Notes under the pieces: model-generated | Database searches by the model: none | What the model saw: only the letters and a program-made list of their open reading frames with translations | What the model was told of the DNA's origin: nothing | Assembly: GCA_025358985.1 (NCBI GenBank) | Contig: JANYHQ010000491.1 | Location: 1 to 24,085, forward strand | DNA length: 24,085 nt | Source of the DNA: Acidimicrobiales bacterium | GTDB lineage: Bacteria; Actinomycetota; Acidimicrobiia; Acidimicrobiales; JANYDT01 | Direction: 5' to 3' | Part shown: positions 4,622 to 23,812 of the stretch, piece by piece | Layout of the letters: each line of letters opens with the position of its first letter | Position numbering within the stretch: the stretch's first letter is position 1 | Position numbers and translations under genes: made by a program

Positions 4622-4633
4622 TGCGCTAGCGAG

Positions 4634-5532: not shown

Positions 5533-6239
5533 ACACCCGGGTGTATAAATTTGAGTGGAGACTATAATGGGAAGGTCAACCTATTGTCGGCCGGACATTT
5601 CTGTAGGGGGACAGTAACCCGTCTTCCTGTCCGACCTGGTGACCGGGAGTGCTGTACGAAAACTGTGTTGGCCGGCGGTGCCGGCCGGTCAACCGGTTTT
5701 GGGGGCCGTAAACCGTTTCTCGAGAAACGGGTCCTTAAATGACTTGCCCCGAGAGGGGCAAGTTGGACGGCCGGAGACGGCCGTGTGGTAGTGCACTGTG
5801 TACTTTACTTTAATCGGGAATACTTTACTGTAATTAGGTGAACTTTCCGCCTGGCGGCTCCAAGTTCACCGTCTAGGGGGACGTCTCCGTCCGGAGACGG
5901 ACCTATTTCCCCCCCACCGGGATGCTCACTACTCCGGTCCCGCTAGGTTTAGCGTCTCAGCGTTCGACGTTTTTCTGTGTACTCCACCAGGCCACCAAGG
6001 CCTGGGTTGTGTAGGGCCGGTCGGTATCGCACCTGTGGGCTCGCCTACACTTGAACACACCGTCTGACGGCTGAACTCCCGGTGGTAAGCCGGTGGGAGG
6101 TTCACACTCCACACCTCGTGTCACGCTGAGGTTGCGCCCCTTGCGGGGTGGTTGAATTGTCCTACATAGACCCCCGGGAGCGCCCGAGCCTCGCCGTGCG
6201 GGGCTGGGACCCGGGCTCTGCTCCCGGGACCTATGTAGG
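5533..6239. other. Non-coding block packed with inverted repeats (candidate origin/packaging region or structured RNA)
   Basis: At least 11 palindromes or stems, e.g. 5533-5544, 5670-5686, 5713-5730, 5742-5763, 5767-5784, 5837-5870, 5889-5902, 6009-6050, 6072-6104, 6161-6239. No convincing ORF with an RBS. Confidence 0.6.
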
Positions 6240-6275
6240 GAATCATGCCATCTCTTCCGGAGGGCTCCTGTGTCA

Positions 6276-6282
6276 GGGGGTC
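6276..6282 (+). promoter_or_regulatory. GGGGGTC late-unit motif upstream of terminase
   Basis: GGGGGTC followed by TGTAGGAG and ATG 6291. The same motif precedes six other late units. Confidence 0.5.
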
Positions 6283-6290
6283 TGTAGGAG

Positions 6291-8168
6291 ATGCCTACCC
6301 GAAAGCCTGCCGCTGACAGGGCGCCCGACAAGTCGTGGGCGTCGAAGCCGAAAGAGAACCGTTTCCGGGAAGCGTTGAAACGGATCGACGCCGGTATGCC
6401 GGTGGCGACCGCTGCCCGTTCGATGGGCTTGTCCCGTTCCCAGGTGAACGTCCGGCTGAAAGTCGCTCGGGATGAGAGGGCGGCAGCCCAGGGGCGTGCC
6501 GCCGACAGTCTGGCCGGCAAGGCCAACTTGACGCAGAACCGGACGGCCGGGCCGCTCGACGACCAGAAGATGCGGGTGTTGCCGTTCGACGACTTCGACC
6601 AGAAGTATTTCGGGACGCTGGTCTGCCCGGATTGTGGCGTCCACCACGAGACCCCCGGGTTTCACACCGAGATCGCCGACGCAGTGCTCGACCCTGACAT
6701 CAAGCGTCTGCTCATCAACATCCCTCCGTACCACAGCAAGTCGGCACTGGTGACCGTCAAGTCGACGGTGTACGAGCTGGTCTGCAACCCGAACGGCCGG
6801 CACCTCATCGTCTCGGCTTCGCAAGACTTTGCGAAGGCCTTCCTCTATTCGATCAAACAGTGGCTGACCAACCCCGAACTGTACGAGGGTGCCGGCGGCA
6901 ACCTGATCGACGACTACGGCCCGTTCTTCAATGACACGTCGACCGACACGCAGACCAAGATGTACATCGCTGGGCGTATGAGCTCGGAGAAGGACCCGTC
7001 CGTTCTCGCTCTCGGCATCGGCAACCAGATCTACGGTCGGCGTGCCGACCGGATCATCTTCGACGACATTGCCACGCTGGAGAACCAGCGCAACCCCGAG
7101 ATGGTCATCAAGCAGATGGAGTGGATCGACAAGCAGGCGCTGAGCCGTATCGGCCGCACCGGCAAGGCGATCTGGGTCGGCACCCGCATCCGTCCCGGCG
7201 ACATCTACACCGGGCTGCAGGACCGCACCGGGTACAAGATCATCAAGTACCCGTGCATCCTCGACGAGGAAGCCGAGTCGACCCTCTGGCCGGACCATTT
7301 CCCGTACCCGGACGCCTCGCTGCGTCGAGCCGAGATGAGGCCGGAAGAGTGGCAGCTCGTCTACCAGAACGTTGACACGCCCGGGCTCGGCTCCTCCTTC
7401 CCGGCCGAAGTGATCGAAGAGTGCAAAGACCGGGAGCACGTCATCGGACAGGTTGACCCGGCATGGAAGCTGTTTGTCGGCATCGACCCGGCGGGCGGCG
7501 GGAAGCAGTCGGGCTTCACGGCGCTGATCCTGCTCGGCTGGGACCGTGACAAGCAGGAGCTCCACCTCGTCGACATGGTCAACGCCCGGGCGTTGAAGGC
7601 CTACCAGTTGAAAGACCAGATCCTCGACTGGGCGGCGTCGTACAACCTGACGGAGATCCGGGTCGAGTCGAACGGTGTCCAGTCGCAGCTCGTCCAGTAC
7701 AACCAGGAGCTGATCAACCCGTTGACACAGCGGGGGATCAGGGTCGTGTCGCATCACACTCACTCGAACAAGTGGGACGCCCAGTTCGGTGTCGAGGCGA
7801 TCGCCCCGTGGTTCTACAACCAGAAGGTCTTCCTGCCGTGGGGGAACGCCGACTCGCAGAGGCGGGTCCAGACGTTGATCGAGCAGTTGGCCGGCTTCCC
7901 GATGGCGGAACGCTCCGACCTGGTGATGGCGTTCTGGTTCGCCTGGCTCGGCATTAAAGAATCGCAGGCCCGTCAGCCCGGGCCGATGTACGAGAACCGG
8001 AAGATGCCGGCCTTCGTCCGCAATCGGCGCCGCATCGCCGACATGCGCACCGGCAAGCTGTGGTCCCCGACCGACCCGAGCCGACCAGACTTCGGTCGCA
8101 TCGACGACACTCGACCGAGGAACGTCGCCAGGTTGGTGAACGTCCCGGGCCAGGTGAACACCTGGTGA
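6291..8168 (+). CDS. terL: Terminase large subunit with N-terminal HTH (625 aa)
   Basis: Walker A-like INIPPYHSKS, Walker B RADRIIFDD, coupling motif WVGTR, RNase H-like nuclease FVGIDPAGGG ... SDLVMAFWF. N-terminal HTH-like MPVATAARSMGLSRSQVNVRLK. Confidence 0.93.
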   Translation: MPTRKPAADRAPDKSWASKPKENRFREALKRIDAGMPVATAARSMGLSRSQVNVRLKVARDERAAAQGRAADSLAGKANLTQNRTAGPLDDQKMRVLPFDDFDQKYFGTLVCPDCGVHHETPGFHTEIADAVLDPDIKRLLINIPPYHSKSALVTVKSTVYELVCNPNGRHLIVSASQDFAKAFLYSIKQWLTNPELYEGAGGNLIDDYGPFFNDTSTDTQTKMYIAGRMSSEKDPSVLALGIGNQIYGRRADRIIFDDIATLENQRNPEMVIKQMEWIDKQALSRIGRTGKAIWVGTRIRPGDIYTGLQDRTGYKIIKYPCILDEEAESTLWPDHFPYPDASLRRAEMRPEEWQLVYQNVDTPGLGSSFPAEVIEECKDREHVIGQVDPAWKLFVGIDPAGGGKQSGFTALILLGWDRDKQELHLVDMVNARALKAYQLKDQILDWAASYNLTEIRVESNGVQSQLVQYNQELINPLTQRGIRVVSHHTHSNKWDAQFGVEAIAPWFYNQKVFLPWGNADSQRRVQTLIEQLAGFPMAERSDLVMAFWFAWLGIKESQARQPGPMYENRKMPAFVRNRRRIADMRTGKLWSPTDPSRPDFGRIDDTRPRNVARLVNVPGQVNTW

Positions 8169-8172
8169 CCCT

Positions 8173-8179
8173 GGGGGTC
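8173..8179 (+). promoter_or_regulatory. GGGGGTC late-unit motif
   Basis: TGACCCT-GGGGGTC-CCTTTGT-ATG(8187). Confidence 0.5.
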
Positions 8180-8186
8180 CCTTTGT

Positions 8187-8417
8187 ATGGTCTTCACTTC
8201 ACACGCAGAGGCGAAGGCGGCTGCCGAGGCTGCCGACTGCTCTTTCATCGGTTTCGGTCCTGAGGCCGGCAAGTTCACCGGCTACGTGCTGGTCGACGCT
8301 GACGCCGACCCGATCGCCTGCCGCAACGTGGCTTTCGAGGCCATGCGGGGACGCCCCATCGATCGCCGAGAGGAACTCCTCGTGAGCCTCGTGGAGGCCC
8401 GCAGTGCTGAACACTGA
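8187..8417 (+). CDS. Hypothetical protein (76 aa) between terminase and portal
   Basis: Fills the intergenic gap, follows the motif and overlaps the portal start. Confidence 0.7.
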   Translation: MVFTSHAEAKAAAEAADCSFIGFGPEAGKFTGYVLVDADADPIACRNVAFEAMRGRPIDRREELLVSLVEARSAEH

Positions 8418-10179
8418 CGATCTGCCGGCGATCTACGCCGCCTTCCGCACACGCTGGAAGAACCGGGACAACCGAATGTTGATCATGCAAGACGTGGTGA
8501 AAGGGACGGTCCTGTCGACGATTCCCGACGACACCGACCTCCAGAGCACGTCGCCGAACCTGATCCAGGTCGCCCTGGAAGACACCGCCGAGTCGGCGGC
8601 GATCATGCCGTCGTTCCGGGTGATCCCCCCGACACAGGATGGCGCCTCGAAGAAGATCGCCGAGAAGATGGAGAAGATCCTGCTCGGCTACATGGACCGT
8701 GCCGGCGGGGAACTCTTCCTCGTCCGTAGCTTCCTGGAGCTCGCCGCCTACGGCTTCTTCGCCCCGGCCGCCTTCATGGACACCGAGGTCGGCAACCCTC
8801 GCCTCGATCTTCGGCCGGCGGTCGGGTGCTACCCGGAACCCGACTGGAAGCCTGGCATGGCGGTCCGCAAGTGCCTGTTCGCCCGCTCGATCTTCTTCTC
8901 GCAGCTCCCCCCAGAGTACCAGGCGATGGCCAAACCGTGGGCGGCCTCTCGGGATTCGGCGATCGTCAACAACCAGCGCCACGTCATCCTGATCGAATAC
9001 TTCGACGAAGACGAACAGGTCATCGCCCTGTTGAGCACGTCGGCCTACGGGTCGGCGCTCAACATGCGAGCCGAAGGCCTGCCGATGATCCTGGAGCGCT
9101 TCCAGCACGACTACAAGATGTGCCAGGTCACCGTCGGCCAGCGCCCAACGCTGGACGGCGAACCCCGAGGCCAGTTCGATCAGGTCGTCGCCCCGATGGA
9201 GGCCCACTCCCGTCTGATGGCAATGGCCATCGACTACGCCGACCAGAGCGTCTATTCGGACATCTGGGTGAAAGAGCCGATGGGCGAGATCCCGTTCGGT
9301 GGTGGCGGCATCATCCAGCTCGGCCCGAACGGTGCCATCGGTCGTGTGCCGCCGGCCGTGTCCAGCCTGTCGCTGTTCCAAGAGCTCGACCAGTTGATGA
9401 ACACGATCCACCTCGGTGGCCGCTGGCCGAAGTCCCGCCCCGGCGAGATCGATCAGGCGATCGCTTCGGCGAAGTTCTTGGAGACCTCGGTCGGCGTGAT
9501 GAACACCGCCCTTCGGACGTACCACTTCATCATGAAGTACGCTCTGGAGCGCATTCTGCTCGTCATGCTGAAGATGGACAAGGAGCACGGCAGCCCCACC
9601 TCGGTCGCTCGTGGCGTGCTGCGCAACCAGGAGTTCGTCGAAGAGTACGACCCGTCGGTCGACATCGACCTGTCTTACAAGGTGAGGATCGAGTATGGCC
9701 TCGGGCTCGGGCGTGACCCGAGCCAATCCGCCGTTCTTCACATCCAGTACGCCCAGGCCGGGATGATCTCGAAAGAGTTCGTCCAAGAGTCGATTGAGGG
9801 CGTCTCCGATGTCGAGCGGGAACGGCGTCGCATCGACGTCGAGAAGCTGACCGACATGATGTTCGGCAAGCTGATGCAAGGCGTACAGCAGGGCACCGTG
9901 TCCGATTCTGCCCTCGTCGAGATTGCGGCCGCTCGCCAGCAGGGCGACCAGATGTTCGACATCTTCAAGAAGTACATCGTCGACCCGCAGACGAAAGCCC
10001 AAGCCACAGGGATCACGTCTGGGATCGATGGGTCACTGCAGCAGCCGGGCGGCCCCCCGGCCGCTGACGTGCCCGGACTGACCCCGCCACCTCCGCCGAG
10101 CATGGTGCAAGGCATGGCGAGCATGAGCATCCCGACGGGCGGGCGAGGCAACTTCATCGGCACCCGGACAGGAGGCTGA
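8404..10179 (+). CDS. Portal (head-tail connector) protein (591 aa)
   Basis: Position after TerL, size, GGAGG RBS with GTG start. The LDGEPRGQFDQVV segment and helical C-half resemble actinophage podovirus-type portals. Pro-rich C-terminal tail. Confidence 0.8.
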   Translation: MLNTDDLPAIYAAFRTRWKNRDNRMLIMQDVVKGTVLSTIPDDTDLQSTSPNLIQVALEDTAESAAIMPSFRVIPPTQDGASKKIAEKMEKILLGYMDRAGGELFLVRSFLELAAYGFFAPAAFMDTEVGNPRLDLRPAVGCYPEPDWKPGMAVRKCLFARSIFFSQLPPEYQAMAKPWAASRDSAIVNNQRHVILIEYFDEDEQVIALLSTSAYGSALNMRAEGLPMILERFQHDYKMCQVTVGQRPTLDGEPRGQFDQVVAPMEAHSRLMAMAIDYADQSVYSDIWVKEPMGEIPFGGGGIIQLGPNGAIGRVPPAVSSLSLFQELDQLMNTIHLGGRWPKSRPGEIDQAIASAKFLETSVGVMNTALRTYHFIMKYALERILLVMLKMDKEHGSPTSVARGVLRNQEFVEEYDPSVDIDLSYKVRIEYGLGLGRDPSQSAVLHIQYAQAGMISKEFVQESIEGVSDVERERRRIDVEKLTDMMFGKLMQGVQQGTVSDSALVEIAAARQQGDQMFDIFKKYIVDPQTKAQATGITSGIDGSLQQPGGPPAADVPGLTPPPPPSMVQGMASMSIPTGGRGNFIGTRTGG

Positions 10180-10180
10180 C

Positions 10181-10603
10181 ATGGCTGATATCCCGGATAT
10201 CACTCAACTTCCGGGTTCTGGCTCGGTGAGCAAGCCGGATTCTGGCACCTATGGTGACGTGACCGCCCTCCAGGACCTGAAGAAGGGGACGGGCCTCGGT
10301 GAGGCCCCGCCAGGGCCTCCCGGCCCGGACGTGTCGACAATGCCGGGCAGTGCCCAGATCAAGCCGTCGAGCGGCCCGTTCGGGCTCCCTTCGGCGATCA
10401 CCGCACCGACGCAGCAGCCGGACACGCCGGTCGGCACGCCCCTGGCGGCAGCCCCGGTGAACCCGGTCGCTCAAGCCGGCGCCCCGAACCAGCAGCGCCT
10501 GGCGTTCCTCGACATGCTGGCCCGCAACCCCGACGTGTCGGACACGACCCGTGAGTGGGCGCAGACGGTGATGGCCAAGCTGATCCAAGCGACGAGGCAA
10601 TGA
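10181..10603 (+). CDS. Pro/Gly-rich portal-adjacent virion protein (140 aa)
   Basis: AGGAGG RBS. N-terminal GTYGDVTALQDL motif, low-complexity middle, helical C-terminus. Coupled to the next gene by ATGA. Confidence 0.75.
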   Translation: MADIPDITQLPGSGSVSKPDSGTYGDVTALQDLKKGTGLGEAPPGPPGPDVSTMPGSAQIKPSSGPFGLPSAITAPTQQPDTPVGTPLAAAPVNPVAQAGAPNQQRLAFLDMLARNPDVSDTTREWAQTVMAKLIQATRQ

Positions 10604-13494
10604 CCGACATCCCGGCCCAGATCCCGCAGCAACAATCGGAGGTGAGTCTCGCCGACGGTGCTGCCGCCCTGCCGCCGATCGTCTCGTCGCCGCCCGAGGA
10701 GCCATCGCAGCCGTTTCTGACCAGTCCGGTCCCGGTCCCGCAGGGGCAGGTGTCCAACGTCGAGCAGGCCACGCCTGCCGACTGGCATCCGAACGACCCG
10801 GTTCGGCGAGGCATCGCCGCCGGTCATATCGGCGTCTACGCCAGCAAGCAGCCCGGCGGGCTTGCCGATGCAAAGCAGCACTGGGACACGTTCGGCAAGA
10901 TCGCTGACGGCGGGATGATCCCGAGCACGGGCGACACCGCCGAGACCATGCGGATCTGGAAGAAGTTCAAGGCGAACCCGGAGAGGTTGAAGCCCGACGA
11001 GTCGGCTGCCCTTCTCAATGCGGTGAGCCAGGTCGGCGCAGCCACGGCAGGCTCACCCGATCTGCAGTTCGACCCGGTTGCCCGGGTGAGATCGGTCGGT
11101 GCCGGGGGTGAAGTCAAGGTCGCCTATCCCGCAACGACTCATGTCAGGGACCTGGCGCTTCAACCCCTGGCACCCTCCGGCGTCGAGCGGATGCGGACGC
11201 TGGCACACCTCGGCGATGGTGCCACGAAAGACGTCCCCCCTCAGGATCTCCTGGCCCCTTTCCTCGGGCTCGACACGAACCATTCGACACCCGACGTCGC
11301 CAAGTTGAACGAGGTCGTGGCCGGTCTGGCCAACGAACTCGGTAGCGAGCCGCAGCGGGTCCGTGCTCAGATCGCTGCCGGCTGGCAGCGGCTTCGCACC
11401 CCGACACAACCGTGGGAACGCCCGTTCGCCGTTCGTGCCGGCGGGGTGAACCCGGCCGAGGAGGCCCTCACCGACGGGCTTTCGATGAACCTGGTCAACG
11501 CCATGAAGGGAGGGGTGAATGTCCTCGACTTCACGACGGAGGGTGAGCCGGCCATTTCCGTCCAGCCGGGCGGTGGCCTGGCCGTGTCGGCGCCACCGTC
11601 GGAACGCAACGCCCGACTCCTCCGGCACCTGTACCCCGCCTTCTCGAAGGGCGGGATCACCGCATGGCTTCCCGGCGCCCCCGCCTCAACCGAGAACGCA
11701 TCGAAGTTGCCCGGTGCCGTCTACAACGACTTCTTCCTCCGGGCCTCCGGCGGCCATCCGCTGTTCAAGCCCGGAACCCACATCGTCTACGATGCCTCCG
11801 ACCCGAAGCAACCCGGACAGGATCTCGGGCCGGTCCTGACACAGGGACCGGCACTGAACATGGACCGGCTCAAGTCCGCCGAGATCGACCCGGGCAAGCT
11901 ACCCGACCTCATCAAGTCGAACGCCTGGGCACTGATCCCGGGCGACAACTCGACGAAGGCCTCGCTCATCAGGAGCGGGTACAACCCGATTACCCACAAA
12001 GTGAGTGAATCTACTCACTTTGTGGTATTCGGGATCACGCCCGAACAGGCCCGGGCGCACACTGCCGGCGAGATCGTGACCAACGCTGGGACGTACTCGA
12101 AGGACGGGTTCAGGCCCGGTGACGGGCCGACGTTCGAAAAGGCCGACGACGGCCAACAGTCGGTGACCCGCCTTGCCGGTGGCGACGTTCACTGGCATCT
12201 CGGCGGGGTCGATCGTTCGGCCGAGGCTGAGGCACCCCCGACGACCGAGGTGACCACGACCCGGGCGCAGCGCCGGGCCGTGGAGGTGACCGGAGACCTG
12301 CAGTCGACGATCTCCGACCTGGAGAACCAGGGCGCCCAGAACCTCCACGTCTACGCTCACCGCAACCAGCTCGACGGGTTCCACACCGCCTGGGAGCACG
12401 TCTACACCGACGGGACGAACACGACCGGCGTTCTGGCCAAGAAGGCCTCAGAGGCCGCTCACGCCGGCCCGGTGTTCGTTCGCAGCACCGACGGACTCCC
12501 CGACACCGTGACGCCCCCGCAGACGGCTCGGCGTGGCACGTCCGGGTACATAATGAACGGCGTCCAGGTGATCACGACGGACAACATCAAGAAGCTGACC
12601 GACCTGAAGGCCGGCGGCCTCCGCCTCGACGGCAGCGCCATCGTTCCGGTCGACCAGGGCGGTGACGTGTCGTTGAGTGGCGGCAAGATCGTCGTGCACG
12701 ACCCGACGCCGGCTGCCGCCCGGCTGATTGCCACCGCCAAGGCAACCGGGCTTCCCGACTCCCAATTTCACGCGCCGAGCGCTGGACGTTTGACGCCGAA
12801 CACCCCGGCCTCGATGGTGACAATCTCGGGGGACCGTGTCCAGCCGCTGCGACAGACCCGGCCGAGCCCCGACTGGGCGAGCCGGTTCGGGATCGTGTTC
12901 GACCCGGCGTGGCGGACACAGGACGGTGTGCAAGAGCTCGACCCGAAGTTGTCCGCCCATCTGGCCAACGTGTACGACGCCTTCCAGTCACAGCACCAGG
13001 CTGCGACCAGCCTGTGGGATCTCCAACGGATCGCCGTGACTGGTGGTTACTCGAAGACGCCCGCCTACACCGAGTGGGGCGGGCTTGGTGGTGGCATCGG
13101 TCTGTCGGCGAAGCACTGGCAGGACCCCGGCGCCCTCACTGACCACGTTGCACGGTTGCAGGACAATGGAACGATTGTTCCAAATATCATACCAACTCCG
13201 GCCTATTTCGTTACACATGAGCTCGGGCACGTCGTCCACGGTGCCTTGCAGTTCGGAACCGATGGCTCCGGGGCTCGTAAAGAACTGTTGGCGATCAGGA
13301 GTTCGTTGGGAAAGGACGGGATCACACGGGGCCTCTCGGCCCAGGCCTGGGCCTCCCCCGAGGAGATGGTCGCCGAGGCGGTCGCCGAAGGCGTGCTGGC
13401 GAGCAACCCTCGCCCGCTGGCCAGGGAAATCTTGAACACCGTTCAAGCGGCGTACACTCGTGTTGCTGATGCCCGAACGAAGACGGAGTGGTGA
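10600..13494 (+). CDS. Large probable virion protein with C-terminal zincin metallopeptidase domain (964 aa)
   Basis: ATG 10600 overlaps the upstream stop. HELGH (HExxH, 13216-13230) plus downstream EEMVAEAVAE form a gluzincin-like arrangement. Confidence 0.75.
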   Translation: MTDIPAQIPQQQSEVSLADGAAALPPIVSSPPEEPSQPFLTSPVPVPQGQVSNVEQATPADWHPNDPVRRGIAAGHIGVYASKQPGGLADAKQHWDTFGKIADGGMIPSTGDTAETMRIWKKFKANPERLKPDESAALLNAVSQVGAATAGSPDLQFDPVARVRSVGAGGEVKVAYPATTHVRDLALQPLAPSGVERMRTLAHLGDGATKDVPPQDLLAPFLGLDTNHSTPDVAKLNEVVAGLANELGSEPQRVRAQIAAGWQRLRTPTQPWERPFAVRAGGVNPAEEALTDGLSMNLVNAMKGGVNVLDFTTEGEPAISVQPGGGLAVSAPPSERNARLLRHLYPAFSKGGITAWLPGAPASTENASKLPGAVYNDFFLRASGGHPLFKPGTHIVYDASDPKQPGQDLGPVLTQGPALNMDRLKSAEIDPGKLPDLIKSNAWALIPGDNSTKASLIRSGYNPITHKVSESTHFVVFGITPEQARAHTAGEIVTNAGTYSKDGFRPGDGPTFEKADDGQQSVTRLAGGDVHWHLGGVDRSAEAEAPPTTEVTTTRAQRRAVEVTGDLQSTISDLENQGAQNLHVYAHRNQLDGFHTAWEHVYTDGTNTTGVLAKKASEAAHAGPVFVRSTDGLPDTVTPPQTARRGTSGYIMNGVQVITTDNIKKLTDLKAGGLRLDGSAIVPVDQGGDVSLSGGKIVVHDPTPAAARLIATAKATGLPDSQFHAPSAGRLTPNTPASMVTISGDRVQPLRQTRPSPDWASRFGIVFDPAWRTQDGVQELDPKLSAHLANVYDAFQSQHQAATSLWDLQRIAVTGGYSKTPAYTEWGGLGGGIGLSAKHWQDPGALTDHVARLQDNGTIVPNIIPTPAYFVTHELGHVVHGALQFGTDGSGARKELLAIRSSLGKDGITRGLSAQAWASPEEMVAEAVAEGVLASNPRPLAREILNTVQAAYTRVADARTKTEW

Positions 13495-13598
13495 TGTGTT
13501 GGAAGTGCTTCCTCCGGCAGTACCCGCTCGGCGAGTACGCCTTCCCGGTCGCCCTCCCGGCACCGCCGAAGCCGAAGGAGAAGCCACGTGATCGCTGA
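13494..13598 (+). CDS. Small CxxC peptide (34 aa; not in ORF track)
   Basis: TGATG overlap with the zincin gene, GGAG RBS. MCWKCFLRQYPLGEYAFPVALPAPPKPKEKPRDR. Confidence 0.45.
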   Translation: MCWKCFLRQYPLGEYAFPVALPAPPKPKEKPRDR

Positions 13599-13761
13599 AG
13601 CCCCGTGCAACACCTGCAAGTGGGCGTCGCTGGCAGCCGACGGCTCGGCCGCAACATGCGACGCCTTCCCGAAAGGTATCCCTCAGATGTTTCTCCGTGG
13701 CGAAAACGACCACTCGAAGCCCGTGCCGGGCGACGGCGGGATCACGTACCAGCCCGCTTGA
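13588..13761 (+). CDS. Small Cys3-His protein, candidate immunity/partner of the zincin domain (57 aa; not in ORF track)
   Basis: GAAGGAGA RBS, GTG start. MIAEAPCNTCKWASLAADGSAATCDAFPKGIPQMFLRGENDHSKPVPGDGGITYQPA fits a CxxC...C.AFP.GIP.....G..DH..P.PGD.GI pattern I recall from proteins downstream of phage zincin/MuF-type genes. Confidence 0.75.
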   Translation: MIAEAPCNTCKWASLAADGSAATCDAFPKGIPQMFLRGENDHSKPVPGDGGITYQPA

Positions 13762-13765
13762 CCTT

Positions 13766-13772
13766 GGGGGTC
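13766..13772 (+). promoter_or_regulatory. GGGGGTC late-unit motif upstream of tRNA
   Basis: TGACCTT-GGGGGTC-CATAT, then tRNA base 1 at 13778. Confidence 0.55.
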
Positions 13773-13777
13773 CATAT

Positions 13778-13850: not shown

Positions 13851-13858
13851 CCGGACGT

Positions 13859-13865
13859 GGGGGTC
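13859..13865 (+). promoter_or_regulatory. GGGGGTC late-unit motif
   Basis: GGGGGTC-TACATAC-ATG(13873). Confidence 0.5.
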
Positions 13866-13872
13866 TACATAC

Positions 13873-16800: not shown

Positions 16801-19107
16801 ACCCCCGAGTACGTGCGGATGCAGAACCATCTCGACTCGCTGGACCGTGACGGCTACAAGCTCGTGCACGGTGTCGAGTACCTCATGCCCGAAGACCTCG
16901 CTCACCACACCCCGGTCTTCGAGGACATCACCCGACGTCACCTGAACGCAGCGACGCTCGGCAACTTCTTCAAAGGCCGGGAGCCGGCCGTCGCCCGCTT
17001 CGACGAGGAGCGTCGCTCCCGTTCCATCCTGTTCAACAACCTCTCCAAGCAAGGCCTCTTCGACAAGGGCCTGAACGAACAGGACGCCACCAACATGTTT
17101 GAGGATCTCCATTCGATCCTCCGGTCGGAGCAGTCGTTGTCCGAGGAGGCTCGCACCAACGCAGCGACCGGCGGCTGGCTGAAGAAGCGGCTCGCTGGCA
17201 TCACCACGTCGATGACGCCGGTCACGATGGCAGACCTCGGTCGCACGTCGTGGCGCCGTGTCATCAAGGACTTCACCCCGGTGTACGGCGAGGAGGCGGC
17301 GAACGTTGCCGCCCAGTCGTTGCGTGAGATGCGCAACACCCAATTCAGGGACGTCGGGGTGTACGCCATCGAGGCGAAGCTGCGAACCAACAACCAACTC
17401 GCCGGAGCCTTGAAGGTCCTCTCGGGCACAGAGAACGGCGAAGGGTTCCTCGCCCGGTCGAGCACCGCCCGCAAGGTCGGTGCCGTTGCAGGCGGTATCT
17501 ACGGCGCCGAGACGTCCGACAACAAGGCCACCGGGGCGCTGGAAGGGGCGGCGATCGGTGCCGCCGCCGGCACGGTCGGCCAGGGCGCCCTGTCGCCCCT
17601 GTTCTCCAATGCCGAGAAGGCTTTCTCTGCATCGAAGTGGTTCCAGTACGGCTACCTCGCCGACGACGTCGCCGGCATGCGGGACACGATGCGTTTCACG
17701 CTCTCCCCATTCTTCGACCTGTCCCGCATGGTCAAGAGCCAGGAGCTGGGCCAGACCGCCGCCCCACTCAGGAACGACATCGGCGAGCGGATCGTGATGC
17801 CGCTCAACTCGTCCCCGAAGGCGATGAAGGCCCAGTGGGTAAAAGACGGGCTGACCAAGGAAGGGGCGGACCAGAAGTTCGCCACTGCTCAAGCCCGGTT
17901 CCAGGACCTGATGCGTGGCGGCAAGGGCGGCGTGGCCGACGACTTCCAAGCTACCGACAACCTCGCCAACTACTTCCAGCAGATCGGCATACTCGGCCAC
18001 AACCCGGGCGAATGGCAGGTCACCGCCTTCCAGCATCTCGTCGACCAGGGGATCAACCCGGAGAGGGCGGCCCAGGCTGCCCGGGGCATGTACACCTACG
18101 GTACGAGCGGACGGTCGGCCGCCGAGATGTCGGCCAACTTCCTCTTCTTCCCGTTCAGCTTCCAAAAGAAGGCCTACACGGCTCTCGCCCGATACCTGTC
18201 GGACGACATGTCGAGATCGGTGATCCTCCATGACGCCTTGAAGGGCTACGAGTTGCTCGATCAGAAGTACGACTTGAAGCGAATGTGGCACGACCACCTG
18301 CCGGCGCTGGAGAAGTTCCAGCAGTTGAACATGTTCGCCTACGGCGCTTCGCCCGGCAGGCTGGGCGGGATCAACCGGCCGTTCATCGAGCCGATTATGA
18401 ACATGGCCGCCAACTTGCACGGCAAGAGCGACTTCGTCCCCGGGATCTTTAACATGTTCAACCCGCAGGGCGTGCATATCGGCTCGGCCGCCGATGCGGC
18501 CAACATCAAGCACCTGACCGTCCAGCTTCTACCAGTCATCAACGACATCAACCACCTGCTCGGCTCTGGCGCAGAACAGGTCCATGCCTTGAGTTCGCCG
18601 AGCCGGCAGACCTACGCAGCGGACGCTGGCGACGGCTGGTCCGCCTGGGGGGCGTTCCGCAAGGACTTCGAGGCCAACCTGACCAAGCACGGCTACACGA
18701 TGAACGACCTCAGCCAGCCGTGGCTCGCCTCGACGAAACTGGCCTACGAGGCGAAGCGTGCCGAGATCGAACAGCAGTACCCGGGCTGGAAGGACTCCAG
18801 GGTGAAGTCGGCACAGAATAACGCAACGCTCAAGTTGGAACTCCAGGAACGGTTTGACAGGGTGGCGAACGGCAACGCCAGCCCCACTGATCTCGTCACC
18901 TACCAATTCAACCAGGCGGTGACCGCCGCCAAGGCCGACCTCAAGTTGCACGGCATCCCCGACTTCGTGGACGCCCCGTCGTCGGTTCGTAAGAACCTGA
19001 TCGACCAGGCGGTCGGCCTCGCTCGCCAGTTTCCCGAATGGCGGCAGATCTACGGCAAGTACTTCGAGCCTGAACTCGGCACGATCGAAGCAGAGGTAAA
19101 GGCATGA
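13873..19107 (+). CDS. Very large probable internal virion / DNA-ejection protein (1744 aa)
   Basis: Start at ATG 13873, because the track's TTG 13843 lies inside the tRNA. Ala/Gly-rich helical protein with two glycine-zipper-like hydrophobic segments and a C-terminal FLFFPFSFQKK motif. Lies in the morphogenesis operon. Confidence 0.65.
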   Translation: MAVSPSLIDASGQAPVTSAIDASQVDQNLKAITAIHSSWRLPTLPDEVKLDLASQPGVTPDHLNNFLYGVEADLTGGQPQPPAYQAPSLPDFSTFDKTRAIVAGIAGTKAPTVVDGSAVERWKMDAIDKGYLPAPKDGVIDNSWSPEFDTIRKGMAYDEYNTRQRGDRPGSVPFSKMVNQLYKWTSPTGLLAAATNLDLFWNFGAIGKEFNTWGDKWRQLGKSKNPFDFAKHLVDALTGPIDDILMPIANWAMLASGVGEAYNFAKVAYAGEKAFAGAEAVEGLYKASGFLNFTKGYDAVSDVERMKEASGLALRLGKSSNGAVSGIGDAMGAWRNLDSVATSKKFLQVGMRAGLTSQAEDLLPGYQGGHSLGDLAPVKDAVTWAQTNPLFVAGSGVAELFFTPYSTFRPGSFVKGGKSIIGGAATALGTTGGRAVLGGVLGAGVGTWLGHDTGDTLEGGAIGALGLASVPLLGKGLHSVAAAAEGVPLASKILPKSVGTVGDFLRNTSWKPMADNKELTLAFHNGMLNTLDGQALTDYQAAFDEKGFLHAFAQYHGVDEETAGASMGFVATAAAIDHIASSQAKAGGAKNWLKVYSDAKNKLIAQTRSFDLNNIGAHTIDEIAMAASMGVNGQKKEFATLRAAFQQDPSKALEFASAHNRQAQETLQQLLSVEATPDLNPDIASQLFGWNDLGAKERAGVLSKYIPQVMDHFGNWPQFSARTSEIRQALHDGMLDDAVFDTYKLPSGKVVPTVRPRDIPVSVLPTTSQEISQGVNDAVFRLPETDITKVTSTGKLDVLARAVDPSIGRFTVMRADTADKGQVLGILAELKELKAIHEISAPKLDVLREATAAHGELTDLTRQQYGDVINSMVKGNSSQKEMRRLYDFAKRQGASLSDMKNFMSDTIDTAVNDPRLTDWLGMSKVITGDPKPGEAIGAVLSGPAALKARIVELQKKSQFTAARIDGDKLLAGLGEGTPEYVRMQNHLDSLDRDGYKLVHGVEYLMPEDLAHHTPVFEDITRRHLNAATLGNFFKGREPAVARFDEERRSRSILFNNLSKQGLFDKGLNEQDATNMFEDLHSILRSEQSLSEEARTNAATGGWLKKRLAGITTSMTPVTMADLGRTSWRRVIKDFTPVYGEEAANVAAQSLREMRNTQFRDVGVYAIEAKLRTNNQLAGALKVLSGTENGEGFLARSSTARKVGAVAGGIYGAETSDNKATGALEGAAIGAAAGTVGQGALSPLFSNAEKAFSASKWFQYGYLADDVAGMRDTMRFTLSPFFDLSRMVKSQELGQTAAPLRNDIGERIVMPLNSSPKAMKAQWVKDGLTKEGADQKFATAQARFQDLMRGGKGGVADDFQATDNLANYFQQIGILGHNPGEWQVTAFQHLVDQGINPERAAQAARGMYTYGTSGRSAAEMSANFLFFPFSFQKKAYTALARYLSDDMSRSVILHDALKGYELLDQKYDLKRMWHDHLPALEKFQQLNMFAYGASPGRLGGINRPFIEPIMNMAANLHGKSDFVPGIFNMFNPQGVHIGSAADAANIKHLTVQLLPVINDINHLLGSGAEQVHALSSPSRQTYAADAGDGWSAWGAFRKDFEANLTKHGYTMNDLSQPWLASTKLAYEAKRAEIEQQYPGWKDSRVKSAQNNATLKLELQERFDRVANGNASPTDLVTYQFNQAVTAAKADLKLHGIPDFVDAPSSVRKNLIDQAVGLARQFPEWRQIYGKYFEPELGTIEAEVKA

Positions 19108-19111
19108 CCCG

Positions 19112-19118
19112 GGGGGTC
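19112..19118 (+). promoter_or_regulatory. GGGGGTC late-unit motif
   Basis: TGACCCG-GGGGGTC-TTTAC-GTG(19124). Confidence 0.5.
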
Positions 19119-19123
19119 TTTAC

Positions 19124-20800
19124 GTGAGCGATGCCAACAATCAGACGTTTGAGCAACTCGTAGCTCAGATCCAGGCGCTCGGCATCGACCCGGCCACCCC
19201 GTTTGAGCAGTTGCCTCCGCACGTCCAGGAGATGCTGAAGGCCTACGTGAAGCCGTCGCCACTCGACGACCCGACATCGAAGGCGGGGAAACCGTTCGGC
19301 TATAACGATACGGCAGTCCTCCAGGGCATGTGGGACCGGGTCAACCAGCAGGCTGACCGGAACGTCGTCGACGCCGCCACCAAGAAGGCTCAGGCCGACG
19401 GGGTGGTCACGCCCACCGAGAAGCAGGTGATCGACAGGGCCAACAAGTCGGGCAAGCTGACCCCGCAGGACCAGGCGACACTCAACCTGCCGCAGACCCC
19501 GAAGTGGCTCCTGCAGCAGCTCCAGTCCGATCCGACGTCAGCGCAACAGCAACGCATCGTCAAAGAGTGGAACACGGTCTTCGGGACGAAGATGGCCTGG
19601 AGCCAGCTTGTCACCTCCCCGCAATTCAACGACGCCACCGACATGACGAAGTCGGTTGTCAACGGTGCCCTGCTCGACATTGACCCGATCGTCTCCTATG
19701 CGGTGACCCTCCCAGGGAACCGCAAGTATGACGTGACCGCCGACCAGATGAAGACGCAGTTCGGCCTGTACGGGTACAAGACCGAGGACGTGTCCCGGAT
19801 CATCCGCTACGCCGACACGTTCGGCTTCAAAGACTCGACCGGCAACGTGGCCTGGCAGCCTCTGGCGGCCCTTATCAAGGCTCACGGCATCGACCTGTCG
19901 GCCGGCGACTACGTCCAGGATTCGAGCATCAACTCGGACACCGGCAAGCCGAACCACGTGAAGGTCGGCTACAAGATGCCTGACGGCACCACGGTCACCA
20001 ACGCAGATCTAGCTGGCACCATCCAGCCGGCATACAAGGGCAACCAGCCAGCGGCTAAGAACGAACTCTCGATCGCCGAGTTGACGATGGGCTACCAGCA
20101 GGCGCTGAAGAAGTACGGCGACCCGACGCTCGCCTACCTCGGCAGCCTCGACTCCGGTCTCGCCTCCCGGCTGATGGCGACAGGTGGCGATTCGACGAAG
20201 GTCTCCAACGAGGATGCCCTTCTCGCCGGGCAACTGATGTTGAACGGCCAATGGTCCCCCGCCGCCCAGAAGGCCCTCGGCTACGAGGGCGGCTCGGGCC
20301 TGGACGCCTTCATGAAGCACCTTACCGACGTGGCGGACGCCGGGAAGGCCGCCGAACGAACGATGCCTGATCCAGAGACGATCAAGCAGAACGTCAAAGA
20401 CATGTGGCGCTCCTGGTTCCGATCAGAACCCTCCGATGCGATGGTCAACCAGATGACCGGCGAACTCAGGGCGGCCGTCTCGGCTGCCCCGAAGGATCAG
20501 AGCGTGGACCTCACCGCCCGTTTGCGGGCGATGGCGGAAGCCAGCCCCGAATACAAGACGCTCTACGGCCACAAGCAGCCCGGCCAATCCGAGACGGATT
20601 ACCAACAGCAGTTCGTCCAGGGCGCCCAGTCGTTGCTCGGCAACGAGGCCCCCGACAACGCATCGGTGTTGGCCGGGATGAGGACCGGCTCCTACCAGAC
20701 GACGATCGGTTCCACTGCGGCGAGCGCCCAGGCGATGCAGAACTCAACCTTCCTCGGCCACCTCGCCGAGGCCGCCCGAATCGTCAACCAGAACACCTGA
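19124..20800 (+). CDS. Probable internal virion protein (558 aa)
   Basis: Long ORF with genome-typical codon usage between large virion genes. Gln/Ala/Thr-rich; no catalytic motif recognised. Confidence 0.6.
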   Translation: MSDANNQTFEQLVAQIQALGIDPATPFEQLPPHVQEMLKAYVKPSPLDDPTSKAGKPFGYNDTAVLQGMWDRVNQQADRNVVDAATKKAQADGVVTPTEKQVIDRANKSGKLTPQDQATLNLPQTPKWLLQQLQSDPTSAQQQRIVKEWNTVFGTKMAWSQLVTSPQFNDATDMTKSVVNGALLDIDPIVSYAVTLPGNRKYDVTADQMKTQFGLYGYKTEDVSRIIRYADTFGFKDSTGNVAWQPLAALIKAHGIDLSAGDYVQDSSINSDTGKPNHVKVGYKMPDGTTVTNADLAGTIQPAYKGNQPAAKNELSIAELTMGYQQALKKYGDPTLAYLGSLDSGLASRLMATGGDSTKVSNEDALLAGQLMLNGQWSPAAQKALGYEGGSGLDAFMKHLTDVADAGKAAERTMPDPETIKQNVKDMWRSWFRSEPSDAMVNQMTGELRAAVSAAPKDQSVDLTARLRAMAEASPEYKTLYGHKQPGQSETDYQQQFVQGAQSLLGNEAPDNASVLAGMRTGSYQTTIGSTAASAQAMQNSTFLGHLAEAARIVNQNT

Positions 20801-20801
20801 C

Positions 20802-22376
20802 ATGCTCACTCAAGAACAGGTAGCCCAGATCCTCTACCAGGCCGGCTGGCGTGGTGAGGACCTCGTAACGATGCTGGCCATCGGTGGCCGGGAATCGAAG
20901 TACAACCCGGCGGCGCACCGCACCGACAACCCGAACCCGACCGCCCAGACGGGCGACTATGGCCTGTTCCAGATCAACTCGGTCCACCTCGGGTTCTTGA
21001 AGCAGGCTATCGGCATCACCCAGATGAGCGACCTGCTCGATCCGGTCGTGAACGCCAAGGCCGCCTTGGCGCTGAAGAACAAGTCGGGAGGCTTCTCCCC
21101 CTGGTCGGCCGCCCCTGGCGGGTTCAACGCCTCCGGTAGCCCGACCTACGGCACGAACGTGGAAGCGGCTCGTGCTGCCGTCACCAACGCAACGAACCAG
21201 GGGCTTCTTGGCCAAGACTGGCAGCAAGGAGGGAGCGTGAGCTCGACTACCGGGGGTGCCGTTTCGCCCACGGCCAAGTTCAAGTTGCCGTCGGACGCCA
21301 AGGTGGTCAACATCGCCGGCACCTACGACGTTTACGCCCTGTTCGACGTCGGTGGCGTCAACATCTCGTACAAGATCAACCCGAACAGCGCCGTGGATAT
21401 ATCGGGCGCTTCAGTCACGAAGATGTCTCAGGCCGACTGGCAGTCGACGGCAGCGGTCGACGCCGGACTCGCCGATGAGCTCGGCACGGTCGGCTCGACC
21501 TACGGTTCCTACAAGGGCTTCTGGGATTCGATCGTCGGCCAGGTGATGGGTTACAACAACCCGGCCAAAGACGACCCCGAGGTTCGTCGTGTTCTGGCCG
21601 AGTTCGCCGGTCGCCCCGACATGAACCCCCTGGAGCTCAACAACAAGCTTCAGGCTACTGCGTGGTGGAAGTCTCGCACGTTGGGGCAGCTCGACTGGAA
21701 CGGTCTCGCCGACGGCGAGAAGGCAAAGCGCCGTGACGACACGGCGAACCGGATGGCCGACACCTGGAAGCAATACACGGGCCAGCCGGTCACCGCCAGC
21801 GACCCGATGATCCAGAACTACCTGGAGCAGGTTGCCTCGGGGCAGATGGGCTTTGGTTCATGGACCGAGTCGGTCGTCAAGAAGCACGCCCTCGACATCG
21901 CCAACAGCCCGTACAACCGAGACCTCTCCGACGAGCAGAAGGCAGAGAAGCAGCCCGGGATCGACGTGGAGAACACCGCCATGCGGGTTCGCCAGACCCT
22001 CGACCGTTGGGGCCTGAAATGGGGCGAGAGCACCATTCAGGACTGGGCTCGCAAGATCGTCAACAAGGACGCCTCCGACGACGACCTGACCGAGACGTTG
22101 AAGAACCAGGCGCAAGCCCAGTACGGCCAGTGGAAGCCTCGGGACATGGAGACGTTGACGTATGCGGCCCCGTGGATGGAGACGGCCAACCGGGTGCTGG
22201 AACGTCCCACCGATCTGTCGGACCCGAAGGTTCAGCAGGCCTTGACGAAAGGCCAGCCGGTGTGGCAGTTCGAGCAGGACTTGAAGAAGTCCGACGAGTG
22301 GCTCGGGACGAAGAACGCCCGGGACTCGCTCACCACGCTCGCCGGCTCCGTCGGAAAGTTGATGGGGTTCTCGTGA
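20802..22376 (+). CDS. Virion-associated lytic transglycosylase / lysozyme-like protein (524 aa)
   Basis: N-terminal QAGWRGEDLVTMLAIGGRESKYNPAA...DYGLFQINSVH...DPVVNAKAA has the catalytic Glu (RES) and GLFQIN motif of SLT/lysozyme-like domains. Followed by a Gly/Ser/Thr linker and a helical C-half. Confidence 0.85.
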   Translation: MLTQEQVAQILYQAGWRGEDLVTMLAIGGRESKYNPAAHRTDNPNPTAQTGDYGLFQINSVHLGFLKQAIGITQMSDLLDPVVNAKAALALKNKSGGFSPWSAAPGGFNASGSPTYGTNVEAARAAVTNATNQGLLGQDWQQGGSVSSTTGGAVSPTAKFKLPSDAKVVNIAGTYDVYALFDVGGVNISYKINPNSAVDISGASVTKMSQADWQSTAAVDAGLADELGTVGSTYGSYKGFWDSIVGQVMGYNNPAKDDPEVRRVLAEFAGRPDMNPLELNNKLQATAWWKSRTLGQLDWNGLADGEKAKRRDDTANRMADTWKQYTGQPVTASDPMIQNYLEQVASGQMGFGSWTESVVKKHALDIANSPYNRDLSDEQKAEKQPGIDVENTAMRVRQTLDRWGLKWGESTIQDWARKIVNKDASDDDLTETLKNQAQAQYGQWKPRDMETLTYAAPWMETANRVLERPTDLSDPKVQQALTKGQPVWQFEQDLKKSDEWLGTKNARDSLTTLAGSVGKLMGFS

Positions 22377-22380
22377 CTCC

Positions 22381-22387
22381 GGGGGTC
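22381..22387 (+). promoter_or_regulatory. GGGGGTC late-unit motif
   Basis: TGACTCC-GGGGGTC-CTATAG-ATG(22394). Confidence 0.5.
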
Positions 22388-22393
22388 CTATAG

Positions 22394-23509
22394 ATGGACC
22401 CCGCTCAAGCGATAACGCCGCCCAGCACGGGCGCCGGGCTACTCTCCGATCTAGAGACCTTGTTCCCGTGGCTGAAGTCTGTCGGCCTGCCCGCCTCCTG
22501 GTTCCAGGAGGTGTCGGCCACCTCGGCCTCCGACAGTGAGGTCGTGGCCAAGCTGCGGGGCACCTCTCAGTACAAGTCCCGATTCGCCGGACTTCTCCGT
22601 GAAGACGGCTCGATGCGGATGAATGAAGCGCAGTACATCAACCAGGAGGACTCCTACCGCCATCTGCTCAAGCAGTACGGGGTGTCGGCTGATCGCATGG
22701 ACAACCCGGCGGACTTCGTCGGGTTCTTCAAGTCGGACATCGACCCGAACGAGCTGAAGCAGCGCCTCGACATCTACGACAACGTGAAGACCGGCGGCCA
22801 GGACCTGAAGGACGCCTTCTACGTCTATGCCGGGATGCGGGTGTCGACCGACGACCTGTACGCAGCGACCGTCGACCCGGCAGCCAGTCAGCGGCTGAAC
22901 GAGGAGTACAACCAGAAGGTTGCGATGCAACCCCTCGACTACAAGACGTGGATCACCCGGGCCACCGAGGCCGGGCTTGCCCGTGTCTCTTCGACCCTCT
23001 CGGCCCTGCAGCAGCAGGGCGCCCTGACAGGCAGCGCCGTCCAGAGCGTCATCCAGACCGATCCGAATTTCGCTCGACAGATAATGGACGCCTTGTATCA
23101 CGGCGGCGACCCGACGTCGGGCCAGACCTTGAACTTGAACGAGCTGATGCATAGCTTCGAGTACGCTGCCCTCGGGGCCGCAGCGACAAGCGCCGGGCTC
23201 GCCTTGCCGGACAAGGATACGATCGCTCAGATCCGGTCGGCTGGCGTGAGCCGTGCTGCGGCGCAGCAGGCCTACGTCCAGTTCGGCGAGAACAAGAACC
23301 TGTACGCCGGAGCGGTGGACCGCTCGGGCGGCGGTGCGTTCACTCAGAGCGACTTCGAGAAGGCATCCTTCCTCGGCAACGCCGATGAGGCAGCGAGACT
23401 GACGAAAGGACTCGGGCAGGAGGCCTCCTACGGGCAGGGTTCCGGCCAGTTCAACATCAGTCAGAACCGAAAGGGTGGGTATAGCCAGACGGGCCTCGTG
23501 AACCGTTGA
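22394..23509 (+). CDS. Probable internal virion protein (371 aa)
   Basis: KLRGTSQYKSRFAG...NEAQYINQEDSYRHLLKQYG resembles, from recollection, a segment conserved in actinophage virion proteins. Operon context agrees. Confidence 0.6.
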   Translation: MDPAQAITPPSTGAGLLSDLETLFPWLKSVGLPASWFQEVSATSASDSEVVAKLRGTSQYKSRFAGLLREDGSMRMNEAQYINQEDSYRHLLKQYGVSADRMDNPADFVGFFKSDIDPNELKQRLDIYDNVKTGGQDLKDAFYVYAGMRVSTDDLYAATVDPAASQRLNEEYNQKVAMQPLDYKTWITRATEAGLARVSSTLSALQQQGALTGSAVQSVIQTDPNFARQIMDALYHGGDPTSGQTLNLNELMHSFEYAALGAAATSAGLALPDKDTIAQIRSAGVSRAAAQQAYVQFGENKNLYAGAVDRSGGGAFTQSDFEKASFLGNADEAARLTKGLGQEASYGQGSGQFNISQNRKGGYSQTGLVNR

Positions 23510-23721
23510 GGTGGAACCCGTTCACGAAGTGGTGGCTCGCCTGGGGCGCAGCTTTCACCGTGATCGAACTGAGCGCCATACGCAAGCGCAGCAAGTACCC
23601 GGGCGGCACCCTGTCGTCGCTCGTCTGGCGGTTCTCTGACCGCAAGAACCCGATCCGCCGCCGGCTGTTTCTTGCCGGCTGGCTGACCCTATCCCTCCAC
23701 TTCCTCCTCCACTGGTTCTGA
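23506..23721 (+). CDS. Small two-helix membrane protein (71 aa)
   Basis: TTG start overlapping the upstream TGA. Two hydrophobic segments (WWLAWGAAFTVIEL; LFLAGWLTLSLHFLLHWF) flank a TLSSLVW motif. Confidence 0.65.
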   Translation: MRWNPFTKWWLAWGAAFTVIELSAIRKRSKYPGGTLSSLVWRFSDRKNPIRRRLFLAGWLTLSLHFLLHWF

Positions 23722-23738
23722 CCGTGAGAGTGGTCCTG

Positions 23739-23745
23739 GGGGTCT
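23739..23745 (+). promoter_or_regulatory. GGGGGTC late-unit motif upstream of scaffolding gene leader
   Basis: GTCCTG-GGGGGTC-TCTATAG. No start codon follows closely; a separate AGGAG RBS lies about 60 nt downstream. Confidence 0.55.
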
Positions 23746-23812
23746 CTATAGAACCTGCAAGTGTTTCCCCCGGCACAGGGCAGCGTAGTCGTTAGGGGCG
23801 TAGGAGAATCAC

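Follow-up and report, generated by a model that had tools for sequence, protein, structure and literature searches.

GGGGGTC at late gene starts and tRNA junctions of an uncultured phage lineage: a possible single-element late promoter core

The DNA examined in this study is a 24,085-nucleotide contig (JANYHQ010000491.1) from a metagenomic assembly classified within the Acidimicrobiales. This entire stretch, hereafter termed the window, is a phage fragment with a GC content of 63%, and the heptamer GGGGGTC recurs between the genes of its rightward late operon. A previous examination of the letters alone (the sequence-only reading) had suggested that the heptamer is a phage late promoter that produces near-leaderless transcripts. 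We find that GGGGGTC is placed with great precision in late intergenic gaps, that this placement is conserved among related phages, that early genes do not use the motif, and that it directly precedes tRNA genes. Most likely, the motif fixes where late RNAs start rather than acting solely as a ribosome-binding site; its action on DNA, and the position at which RNA synthesis would begin, are what we infer from these observations. More specifically, GGGGGTC may be the core of a ‘-10-only’ late promoter that would generate leaderless or near-leaderless RNAs, a proposal whose chance of being correct we judge to be slightly less than even.

Placement and conservation of the motif

All copies named in the sequence-only reading exist, although the start of the last one had to be corrected from 23739 to 23738 (Table 1). 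The coding-region copies it mentioned (4941, 14640 and, on the minus strand, 6650) are also present, and another at 3698 had been missed. The bare heptamer shows no significant enrichment in the window (12 occurrences, compared with 8.4 +/- 2.6 in shuffled sequences), and variants carrying one mismatch are rarer than expected (102 versus 153 +/- 10). However, the late intergenic gaps, which amount to 354 nucleotides, contain seven plus-strand copies against an expectation of approximately 0.03 (Poisson P ~1e-15). The motif is present in each of the five gaps that measure 16-20 nucleotides, for which the probability by chance is ~4e-16. The non-random property of the motif is its placement. The window holds seven intergenic copies on the plus strand and one on the minus strand, and the same pattern is evident in close relatives. 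Five of these eight copies reside 5-9 nucleotides before an ATG or GTG, whereas the remaining copies do not, and in tight gaps the stop codon of the upstream gene is located 0-8 nucleotides before the motif. When the motif is extended to GGGGGTC-Y..T[AG]YA, four of the six matches in the 3.45 Mb metagenome bin that includes the window fall on this single contig.

Six close relatives were compared with the window, namely L011, L094, L095, L096, L098 and a 50.6 kb contig that appears in our collection as L012, L097 and L099. Five of these were recovered through their portal proteins, which are 57-77% identical to that of the window, and L098 was recovered through the 371-aa protein (70% identity). 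Together with the window, they yielded a compilation of 37 sites from seven phages, of which 29 are positioned 5-9 nucleotides before an ATG or GTG. In the relatives, GGGGGTC precedes the orthologous starts of TerL (terminase large subunit), the counterpart of the 76-aa gene (75 aa), and the giant gene along with the gene that follows it. Further starts that bear the motif belong to the 371-aa gene, the lysin gene and several tail genes. The copies at orthologous gene starts are always 5-9 nucleotides from the ATG or GTG. The TerL copy is kept in L011, L012, L094, L095 and L096, and the same five phages carry orthologs both of the 8173 copy (L011 9759, L012 7374, L094 2852, L095 2870 and L096 5774) and of the giant-gene copy (L011 16509, L012 13100, L094 9592, L095 8769 and L096 12667). 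The copies at 19112 and 22381 have orthologs at L011 21747 and L098 9988, respectively.

Conservation extends to copies that are not associated with a start codon. The minus-strand copy approximately 100 bp upstream of TerL is kept in five phages, with orthologs at L011 7528, L012 4897, L096 2388 and, in the form GGGGGTT, L094 767. When the gap preceding TerL is aligned, the two back-to-back copies of the motif, about 100 bp apart, are the only invariant blocks, which is the arrangement that would be expected of divergent promoters. Likewise, the copy located some 65 nucleotides before the scaffold-like gene is kept in the window and in L098 (11306), and L097 has the variant GGGAGTC-TAAGTAG at this site. 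The stretch downstream of this copy is conserved as well, as in a 5' untranslated region (UTR), and in the window nucleotides 23745-23812 would constitute a candidate 5' UTR for the scaffold-like gene.

Only one class of genes uses the motif. No sense-strand GGGGGT is present in the early region of the L012 phage, although many of the 24 genes there follow gaps, and the leftward (early) genes of the window similarly lack sense copies of GGGGGTC. In the host bin, 4.9% of GGGGGTC copies precede a long open reading frame (ORF), which is no more than is observed for arbitrary k-mers. The absence of the motif from the starts of early and host-bin genes agrees with the earlier proposal that it is a late-class signal rather than an ordinary ribosome-binding site, and this proposal gains further support from the conserved non-start sites and from the tRNA junctions described below.

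tRNA junctions and the anatomy of the site

The motif is also found before tRNA genes, where a ribosome-binding site has no role, and this argues that it does more than bind ribosomes. In the window, a tRNA-Met gene, which is the sole Rfam match in this DNA, is flanked by two motif copies (13766 and 13859). Its initiator-type features include A1 opposite C72, an A11:U24 pair and three G:C pairs at the base of the anticodon stem, and the gene encodes just the CC of the CCA end. The usual 1:72 mismatch of an initiator tRNA is C1 opposite A72. The tRNAs of L012 and of the more distant relative L069 likewise begin with AGC and place A1 opposite C72. Because the first base of the tRNA is a purine, a primary transcript could begin at the mature 5' end.

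Two additional junctions of this type occur elsewhere in the lineage. A tRNA-like cloverleaf with a CAU anticodon lies five nucleotides (TATAT) after a minus-strand motif copy in L012, at a different genome position from the window tRNA and on the opposite strand. In L069, whose motif variant is GGGGGTG, a tRNA-Met (66 bits with Rfam) begins seven nucleotides after GGGGGTG and is situated upstream of TerL. The spacing between motif and tRNA is therefore 5, 5 and 7 nucleotides at three different genome positions in the window, L012 and L069. The bodies of the three tRNAs have diverged strongly while the junction with the motif has been retained, and base 7 of the motif before each tRNA matches the phage’s own variant (C in the window and L012, G in L069). 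When further motif-tRNA junctions were sought with broader patterns, the only matches were the known L069 contig and one chance match in a coding region. The three junctions are the strongest argument against a role limited to ribosome binding.

Upstream of and within the site, conservation across the 37 examples is confined to the heptamer itself and a C at -3. Base 7 is a C in 35 of the 37 sites, and this nucleotide cannot pair with the anti-Shine-Dalgarno sequence in the 3' tail of 16S rRNA (...GAUCACCUCCUUUCU). The 16S 3' end of the host was sought in the bin and is not present there, and so the pairing is taken from the general 16S tail. Downstream of the motif, positions +1 to +5 are 68-89% A/T despite the 63% GC content of the genome, with pyrimidines at +1, +3 and +5, and 33 of the 37 sites have a purine at +6. 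The preference for a purine holds when +6 is not part of the start codon (20 of 24 sites), and it is seen in all eight copies that are not at gene starts. The five A/T-rich bases and the purine at +6 fit a start site at a fixed distance.

In contrast, the imperfect dyad that the sequence-only reading had described at four copies is not borne out as a structure. The letters are present at 8173, 13766, 19112 and 22381, but the sequences fold no better than shuffled upstream sequence. For 36 of the 37 sites in the seven phages, hairpin stability at the motif has a mean z of +0.18 relative to such shuffled sequence, and the dyad appears to consist mostly of the upstream TGA stop and C-rich sequence. 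An N4-type hairpin promoter (5-7 bp stem with a 3-nucleotide loop) was rejected on the basis of this value and because a hairpin is found in few copies only, and the absence of excess stability likewise led us to reject a processing hairpin or a sequestered Shine-Dalgarno sequence. Intrinsic terminators, defined by a GC-rich hairpin with a U-tract after it, are not indicated at the motifs; only 8167-8179 scores, and weakly, and the count is not above that of shuffled sequences.

The search for promoters of the sigma-70 or sigma-A type required TANNNT or TATAAT as the -10 hexamer and allowed an optional -35 hexamer separated from it by 16-18 nucleotides, and no match was found on the plus strand from 5200 to 24085. 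A host sigma-A-type promoter at the motifs was therefore rejected, given that there is no sigma-70 match beyond chance and no -35 column.

Some individual sites have additional features. Both the minus-strand motif copy and GGGACCTATGTAGG, a degenerate form of the motif on the plus strand, fall within a near-perfect inverted repeat at 6161-6181 and 6221-6240 (CCTACATAGACCCCCGGGAGC and its complement). In L098 (13385-13434), a perfect 11-bp hairpin (GACAAGACCCC ... GGGGTCTTGTC) follows the capsid block, with the motif as its 3' arm. A second motif copy and then an ATG come directly after it, an arrangement that looks like a terminator followed by a restart.

Candidate functions of the motif

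If GGGGGTC is a promoter core, it would occupy approximately -12 to -6, and it would be followed by five A/T-rich, pyrimidine-leaning bases and an RNA start at the purine about six nucleotides past the motif. The A/T-rich pentamer and the purine have the appearance of a melting region and a start site. Each non-overlapping late or lysis gene would then receive its own RNA start, yielding mRNAs that are leaderless or that carry leaders of 0-3 nucleotides. The scaffold/capsid unit would be preceded by a 5' UTR of about 60 nucleotides with a normal AGGAG, and transcription of the tRNA-Met would begin directly at its mature 5' end. On polycistronic RNA produced by read-through, the G-run would still be usable as a Shine-Dalgarno-like site, and it is plausible that the motif has such a dual role, serving as a promoter on DNA and as a Shine-Dalgarno-like element on read-through RNA. 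Because there is no -35 box, the layout is like that of ‘-10-only’ or single-element promoters, among them T4 late promoters and the proximal half of the T7 type, and unlike that of host sigma-A promoters.

A plain Shine-Dalgarno sequence explains the copies close to start codons, but it does not explain the copies before tRNAs, the copies without start codons, the non-pairing C or the restriction to late genes. These four features are most simply explained together if RNA 5' ends are set by the motif about six nucleotides downstream of it. A promoter fits best because, besides the back-to-back copies, the gap before TerL has no conserved sequence that could serve, because the late strand has no sigma-70-like site, and because the A/T-rich pentamer and the ensuing purine resemble a melting region and a start site. 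Thus, the earlier promoter proposal stands with regard to late-class use, placement and conservation, whereas its dyad lacks support and no RNA polymerase, sigma factor or activator of the kind it had envisaged was identified.

Those searches are among several observations that weigh against a promoter. The T7-type polymerase family PF00940 was not found in five complete relatives, although this is a weak negative because the control was also silent. One sigma factor candidate, a 230-aa protein of L011 (944-1636), has a marginal match to Sigma70_r4_2 and was rejected in this role. Its AlphaFold2 (AF2) model (pLDDT 84) matches generic helix-turn-helix (HTH) domains only, such that by predicted fold it is a helical protein with a generic C-terminal HTH, and it has no similarity to the ‘sigma-K’ of the Streptomyces phage Immanuel3. 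No -35-like or UP-like column is evident in 30 aligned sites. More distant relatives carry GGGGGTG with GC-rich spacers before about ten late starts. GGGGGTG pairs better with the anti-Shine-Dalgarno sequence, and this form resembles a plain strong Shine-Dalgarno element. The tRNA-like gene of L012 has a clean cloverleaf fold, but it is called by ARAGORN only and is below the Rfam threshold. Furthermore, a fixed start at +6 would give leaders of 1-3 nucleotides to genes with spacers of 7-9 nucleotides, and in the bacteria that have been studied such leaders are translated less well than true leaderless mRNAs. Finally, the wider lineage has other class-specific boxes at ribosome-binding positions, which fit a habit of control at the level of translation. 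Approximately ten early genes of Immanuel3 (L009 38396-44614, minus strand) are preceded by CAAGGGGAGAGAACA-ATG, and several metagenomic relatives (among L035, L036, L038, L043, L046 and L051) repeat CAACGAGGAGGAA 8-12 times before leftward genes.

The formally closest known system is the start-associated sequence (SAS) of cluster K mycobacteriophages (GGGATAGGAGCCC) and cluster EF Microbacterium phages (GGGAAAGGACCCC). SASs are over-conserved start motifs of actinobacteriophages that were described in 2011, and two published accounts give no function for them (PMC3203893, PMC7302621). SASs resemble GGGGGTC in being short, asymmetric and over-conserved, and in having about 10-19 copies per genome in one orientation (PMC3203893, PMC7302621). 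They also reside a few bases before the starts of genes that follow an intergenic gap, include some bases that are unable to pair with 16S rRNA, have a lone reverse copy that is not tied to a gene start, and are absent from the host. The positional criterion for an SAS (3-8 bases upstream of a start) fits five of the eight intergenic copies in the window. However, GGGGGTC is shorter, with a core of seven bases in which a run of five Gs replaces AGGAG. This Shine-Dalgarno core of the SAS is not in the motif, and GGGGG pairs with CCUCC only by way of a G-U. The upstream inverted repeats of extended SASs are missing from GGGGGTC sites, where nothing upstream other than the C at -3 is conserved. 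GGGGGTC marks structural and lysis genes, whereas the cluster K SASs mark non-structural genes, and it additionally occurs before tRNAs and 68 nucleotides ahead of a gene that has a Shine-Dalgarno sequence of its own. The passages on SASs that were consulted mention neither arrangement.

The main rival to the promoter, a serious one although we consider it rather unlikely, is that GGGGGTC is itself an SAS in the sense of an over-conserved ribosome-binding element that drives or times late translation. Such an element would be a G-rich Shine-Dalgarno variant that pairs with CCUCC through one G-U, perhaps aided by a phage or host factor. Ribosomes might re-initiate on it after the upstream stop, and copies away from gene starts would be secondary, arising for example from recombination between copies. 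The 5-9 nucleotide spacing to the start codon at 29 of 37 sites fits this explanation, as does pairing of GGGGGU with ACCUCC through one G-U. So do the upstream stop 0-8 nucleotides before the motif in tight gaps, the better-pairing GGGGGTG of the distant relatives, and the start boxes of Immanuel3 and other relatives. The published SASs also have a lone reverse copy lacking a gene start and bases that cannot pair with rRNA (PMC3203893, PMC7302621). What ribosome binding cannot explain is the presence of copies 5-7 nucleotides before tRNA genes at three positions. It likewise leaves unaccounted for the conservation of the copies on the minus strand and upstream of the scaffold-like gene, neither of which has a start codon, the retention of a non-pairing C at base 7, and the use of the motif by a single gene class, given that early genes with similar gaps never employ it and that the host bin does not have it at gene starts.

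Cleavage of RNA could also place 5' ends at a fixed distance from the motif, as RNase III sites are known to punctuate T7 transcripts. An endoribonuclease of the host or the phage that cuts the late transcript a few bases after GGGGGUC would free the tRNA and set the short-leader 5' ends, and it would account for the copies on both sides of the tRNA, for the copy in front of the scaffold 5' UTR and for the absence of a -35-like box. We regard such processing as improbable. There is no conserved secondary structure around the motif, no candidate nuclease is seen in the window, and RNase P makes tRNA 5' ends without the need for any upstream motif. Moreover, the back-to-back copies before TerL would each need another promoter within about 100 bp, where nothing else is conserved. 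It is very improbable that the motif is an element of the DNA unrelated to expression, such as a recombination linker at a module boundary, a primase site or a functionless relic of shared ancestry. The window tRNA does sit between two motif copies as if it had been inserted by recombination between them, and the tRNA is found at differing places among the relatives. GGGTC is a T7-type primase site, and genes for a Zn-ribbon DnaG-type primase and a DnaB helicase occur in the relatives. However, a primase site takes only about three bases and would not be expected to avoid coding sequence. The strict distance of 5-9 nucleotides to starts and tRNA 5' ends, the single orientation relative to genes and the purine at +6, taken together with retention across phages with a portal identity of only 57-77%, point to an expression signal. 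Given the constant spacing and orientation, we judged the primase-site and recombination-linker ideas unlikely.

Among known phage promoters, two types offer partial parallels. T4 late promoters consist of a single TATAAATA element at -10 and are used with gp55, gp33 and the gp45 clamp. GGGGGTC might likewise be a single short element near -10 that has no -35 box and stands before many late genes, but it is unrelated in sequence and G-rich, and no homologue of gp55 or gp33 was identified. Promoters of the T7 group (e.g. ...CACTATAG) are conserved over about 18-23 bp. Their likeness to the present motif would lie in a specificity block at about -12 to -6, an A/T-rich stretch of 4-5 nucleotides, a purine start and the presence of many copies across the late region, and several of the copies described here continue with CTATAG or TATAG. 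They differ in that only seven conserved bases and a bias in composition are found here.

This lineage is an unusually informative case because one motif of a single temporal class precedes protein starts, tRNA genes (at three positions) and a long 5' UTR. If the motif is a promoter, it would be a new type of late promoter, and leaderless late messages would be tied to an initiator tRNA encoded by the phage. If instead it is a signal at the level of the ribosome, the tRNA junctions will need a new explanation. The junctions appear to be a new clue to the role of SAS-like motifs. A bolder version of the promoter proposal holds that a new single-element promoter fires both at start codons and at base 1 of an initiator-type tRNA-Met, with the extra initiator tRNA boosting translation of leaderless late mRNAs. 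In such a scheme, A1 opposite C72 would keep the initiator mismatch while permitting a purine start. Raised levels of initiator tRNA strongly favour leaderless translation (PMC9031893). We consider this version distinctly unlikely, although if true it would suggest a possible function for the SASs of actinophages.

Genomic setting and other features of the phages

The window is the entire contig C150, the longest of 745 contigs in its bin, and its assignment to a host is putative. The ends of the contig show no self-closure and the phage genome in the window is incomplete; remaining pieces were sought in the bin and none were found. Among cultured phages, Streptomyces podophages of the Beephvirinae come closest, with portal proteins that are 25% identical and without the GGGGGTC motif, whereas much closer relatives are known from metagenomes only. 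The leftward block and the late operon are separated by about 1.1 kb that has no convincing gene.

Table 1. Motif copies, the tRNA and genes of the window
Feature	Position	Strand	Remarks
GGGGGTC	6169-6175	-	followed by TATGTAGG; without usable start codon; heads leftward non-coding stretch
GGGGGTC	6276-6282	+	8 nt to TerL ATG 6291
GGGGGTC	8173-8179	+	7 nt to ATG 8187 (76-aa gene); 18-nt gap after TerL
GGGGGTC	13766-13772	+	5 nt (CATAT) to tRNA base 13778
GGGGGTC	13859-13865	+	7 nt to ATG 13873 (giant gene)
GGGGGTC	19112-19118	+	5 nt to GTG 19124 (558-aa gene)
GGGGGTC	22381-22387	+	6 nt (CTATAG) to ATG 22394 (371-aa gene)
GGGGGTC	23738-23744	+	followed by TCTATAGA; 68 nt to ATG 23813 (scaffold-like gene)
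GGGGGTC in coding regions	4941, 14640, 6650(-), 3698		3698 is antisense to the ArdC gene
tRNA-Met (CAT)	13778-13852	+	ARAGORN; Rfam tRNA 61.5 bits
Lysin-like gene	2-769	+	
Leftward block	868-5208		includes pentapeptide-repeat protein, 259-aa protein and ArdC-type anti-restriction protein
TerL (terminase large subunit)	ATG 6291	+	first gene of rightward late operon
76-aa gene	8187-8417	+	late operon, after TerL
Portal gene	8404	+	late operon; followed by 140-aa gene, ~964-aa gene and small genes
Giant gene (1744 aa)	13873-19107	+	after tRNA-Met
558-aa gene	19124-20800	+	GTG start; followed by SLT-domain gene
371-aa gene	22394-23509	+	followed by 71-aa gene
Scaffold-like gene	starts ATG 23813	+	own AGGAG

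Within the gene-free region upstream of TerL, a conserved block of about 100 nucleotides is shared by the window (5510-5610, plus strand), L011 (6880-6980) and L094 (50-150). It reads GGG(G)GT(G/C)-TATAAAT..TGGAGAC-TATAAT-GGGAAGGTCAACC and is a candidate for a host-type promoter or a small RNA; in the window, nucleotides 5563-5568 match TATAAT perfectly.

Two proteins of the window were inspected further. The giant 1744-aa protein was rejected as a virion polymerase, having neither a PDB nor a Pfam match. It also has no PHROG sequence match, and its features are like those of large polyvalent (LPD) or MuF-type phage proteins. The 259-aa protein of the leftward block (2745-3524, minus strand) resembles short viral beta-clamp-like proteins by language-model features (score 0.95, DNA_pol3_beta_2 clusters). 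Its PDB match to the beta sliding clamp is weak (E 0.25), PHROGs instead give a weak RusA-like match, and no homologue is present in the fetched relatives. This protein recalls the clamp of T4 late transcription by analogy only.

The phage group is probably temperate, because genes for a tyrosine integrase, Lsr2 and an HTH_3 protein are found in the L012 relative (L099 8884-9846). Lastly, two portal homologues, P0005 (854 aa) and P0064 (870 aa, PF14528), are about 260 aa longer than the rest, and the match of one to a LAGLIDADG-type domain suggests that the portal gene contains an intein.

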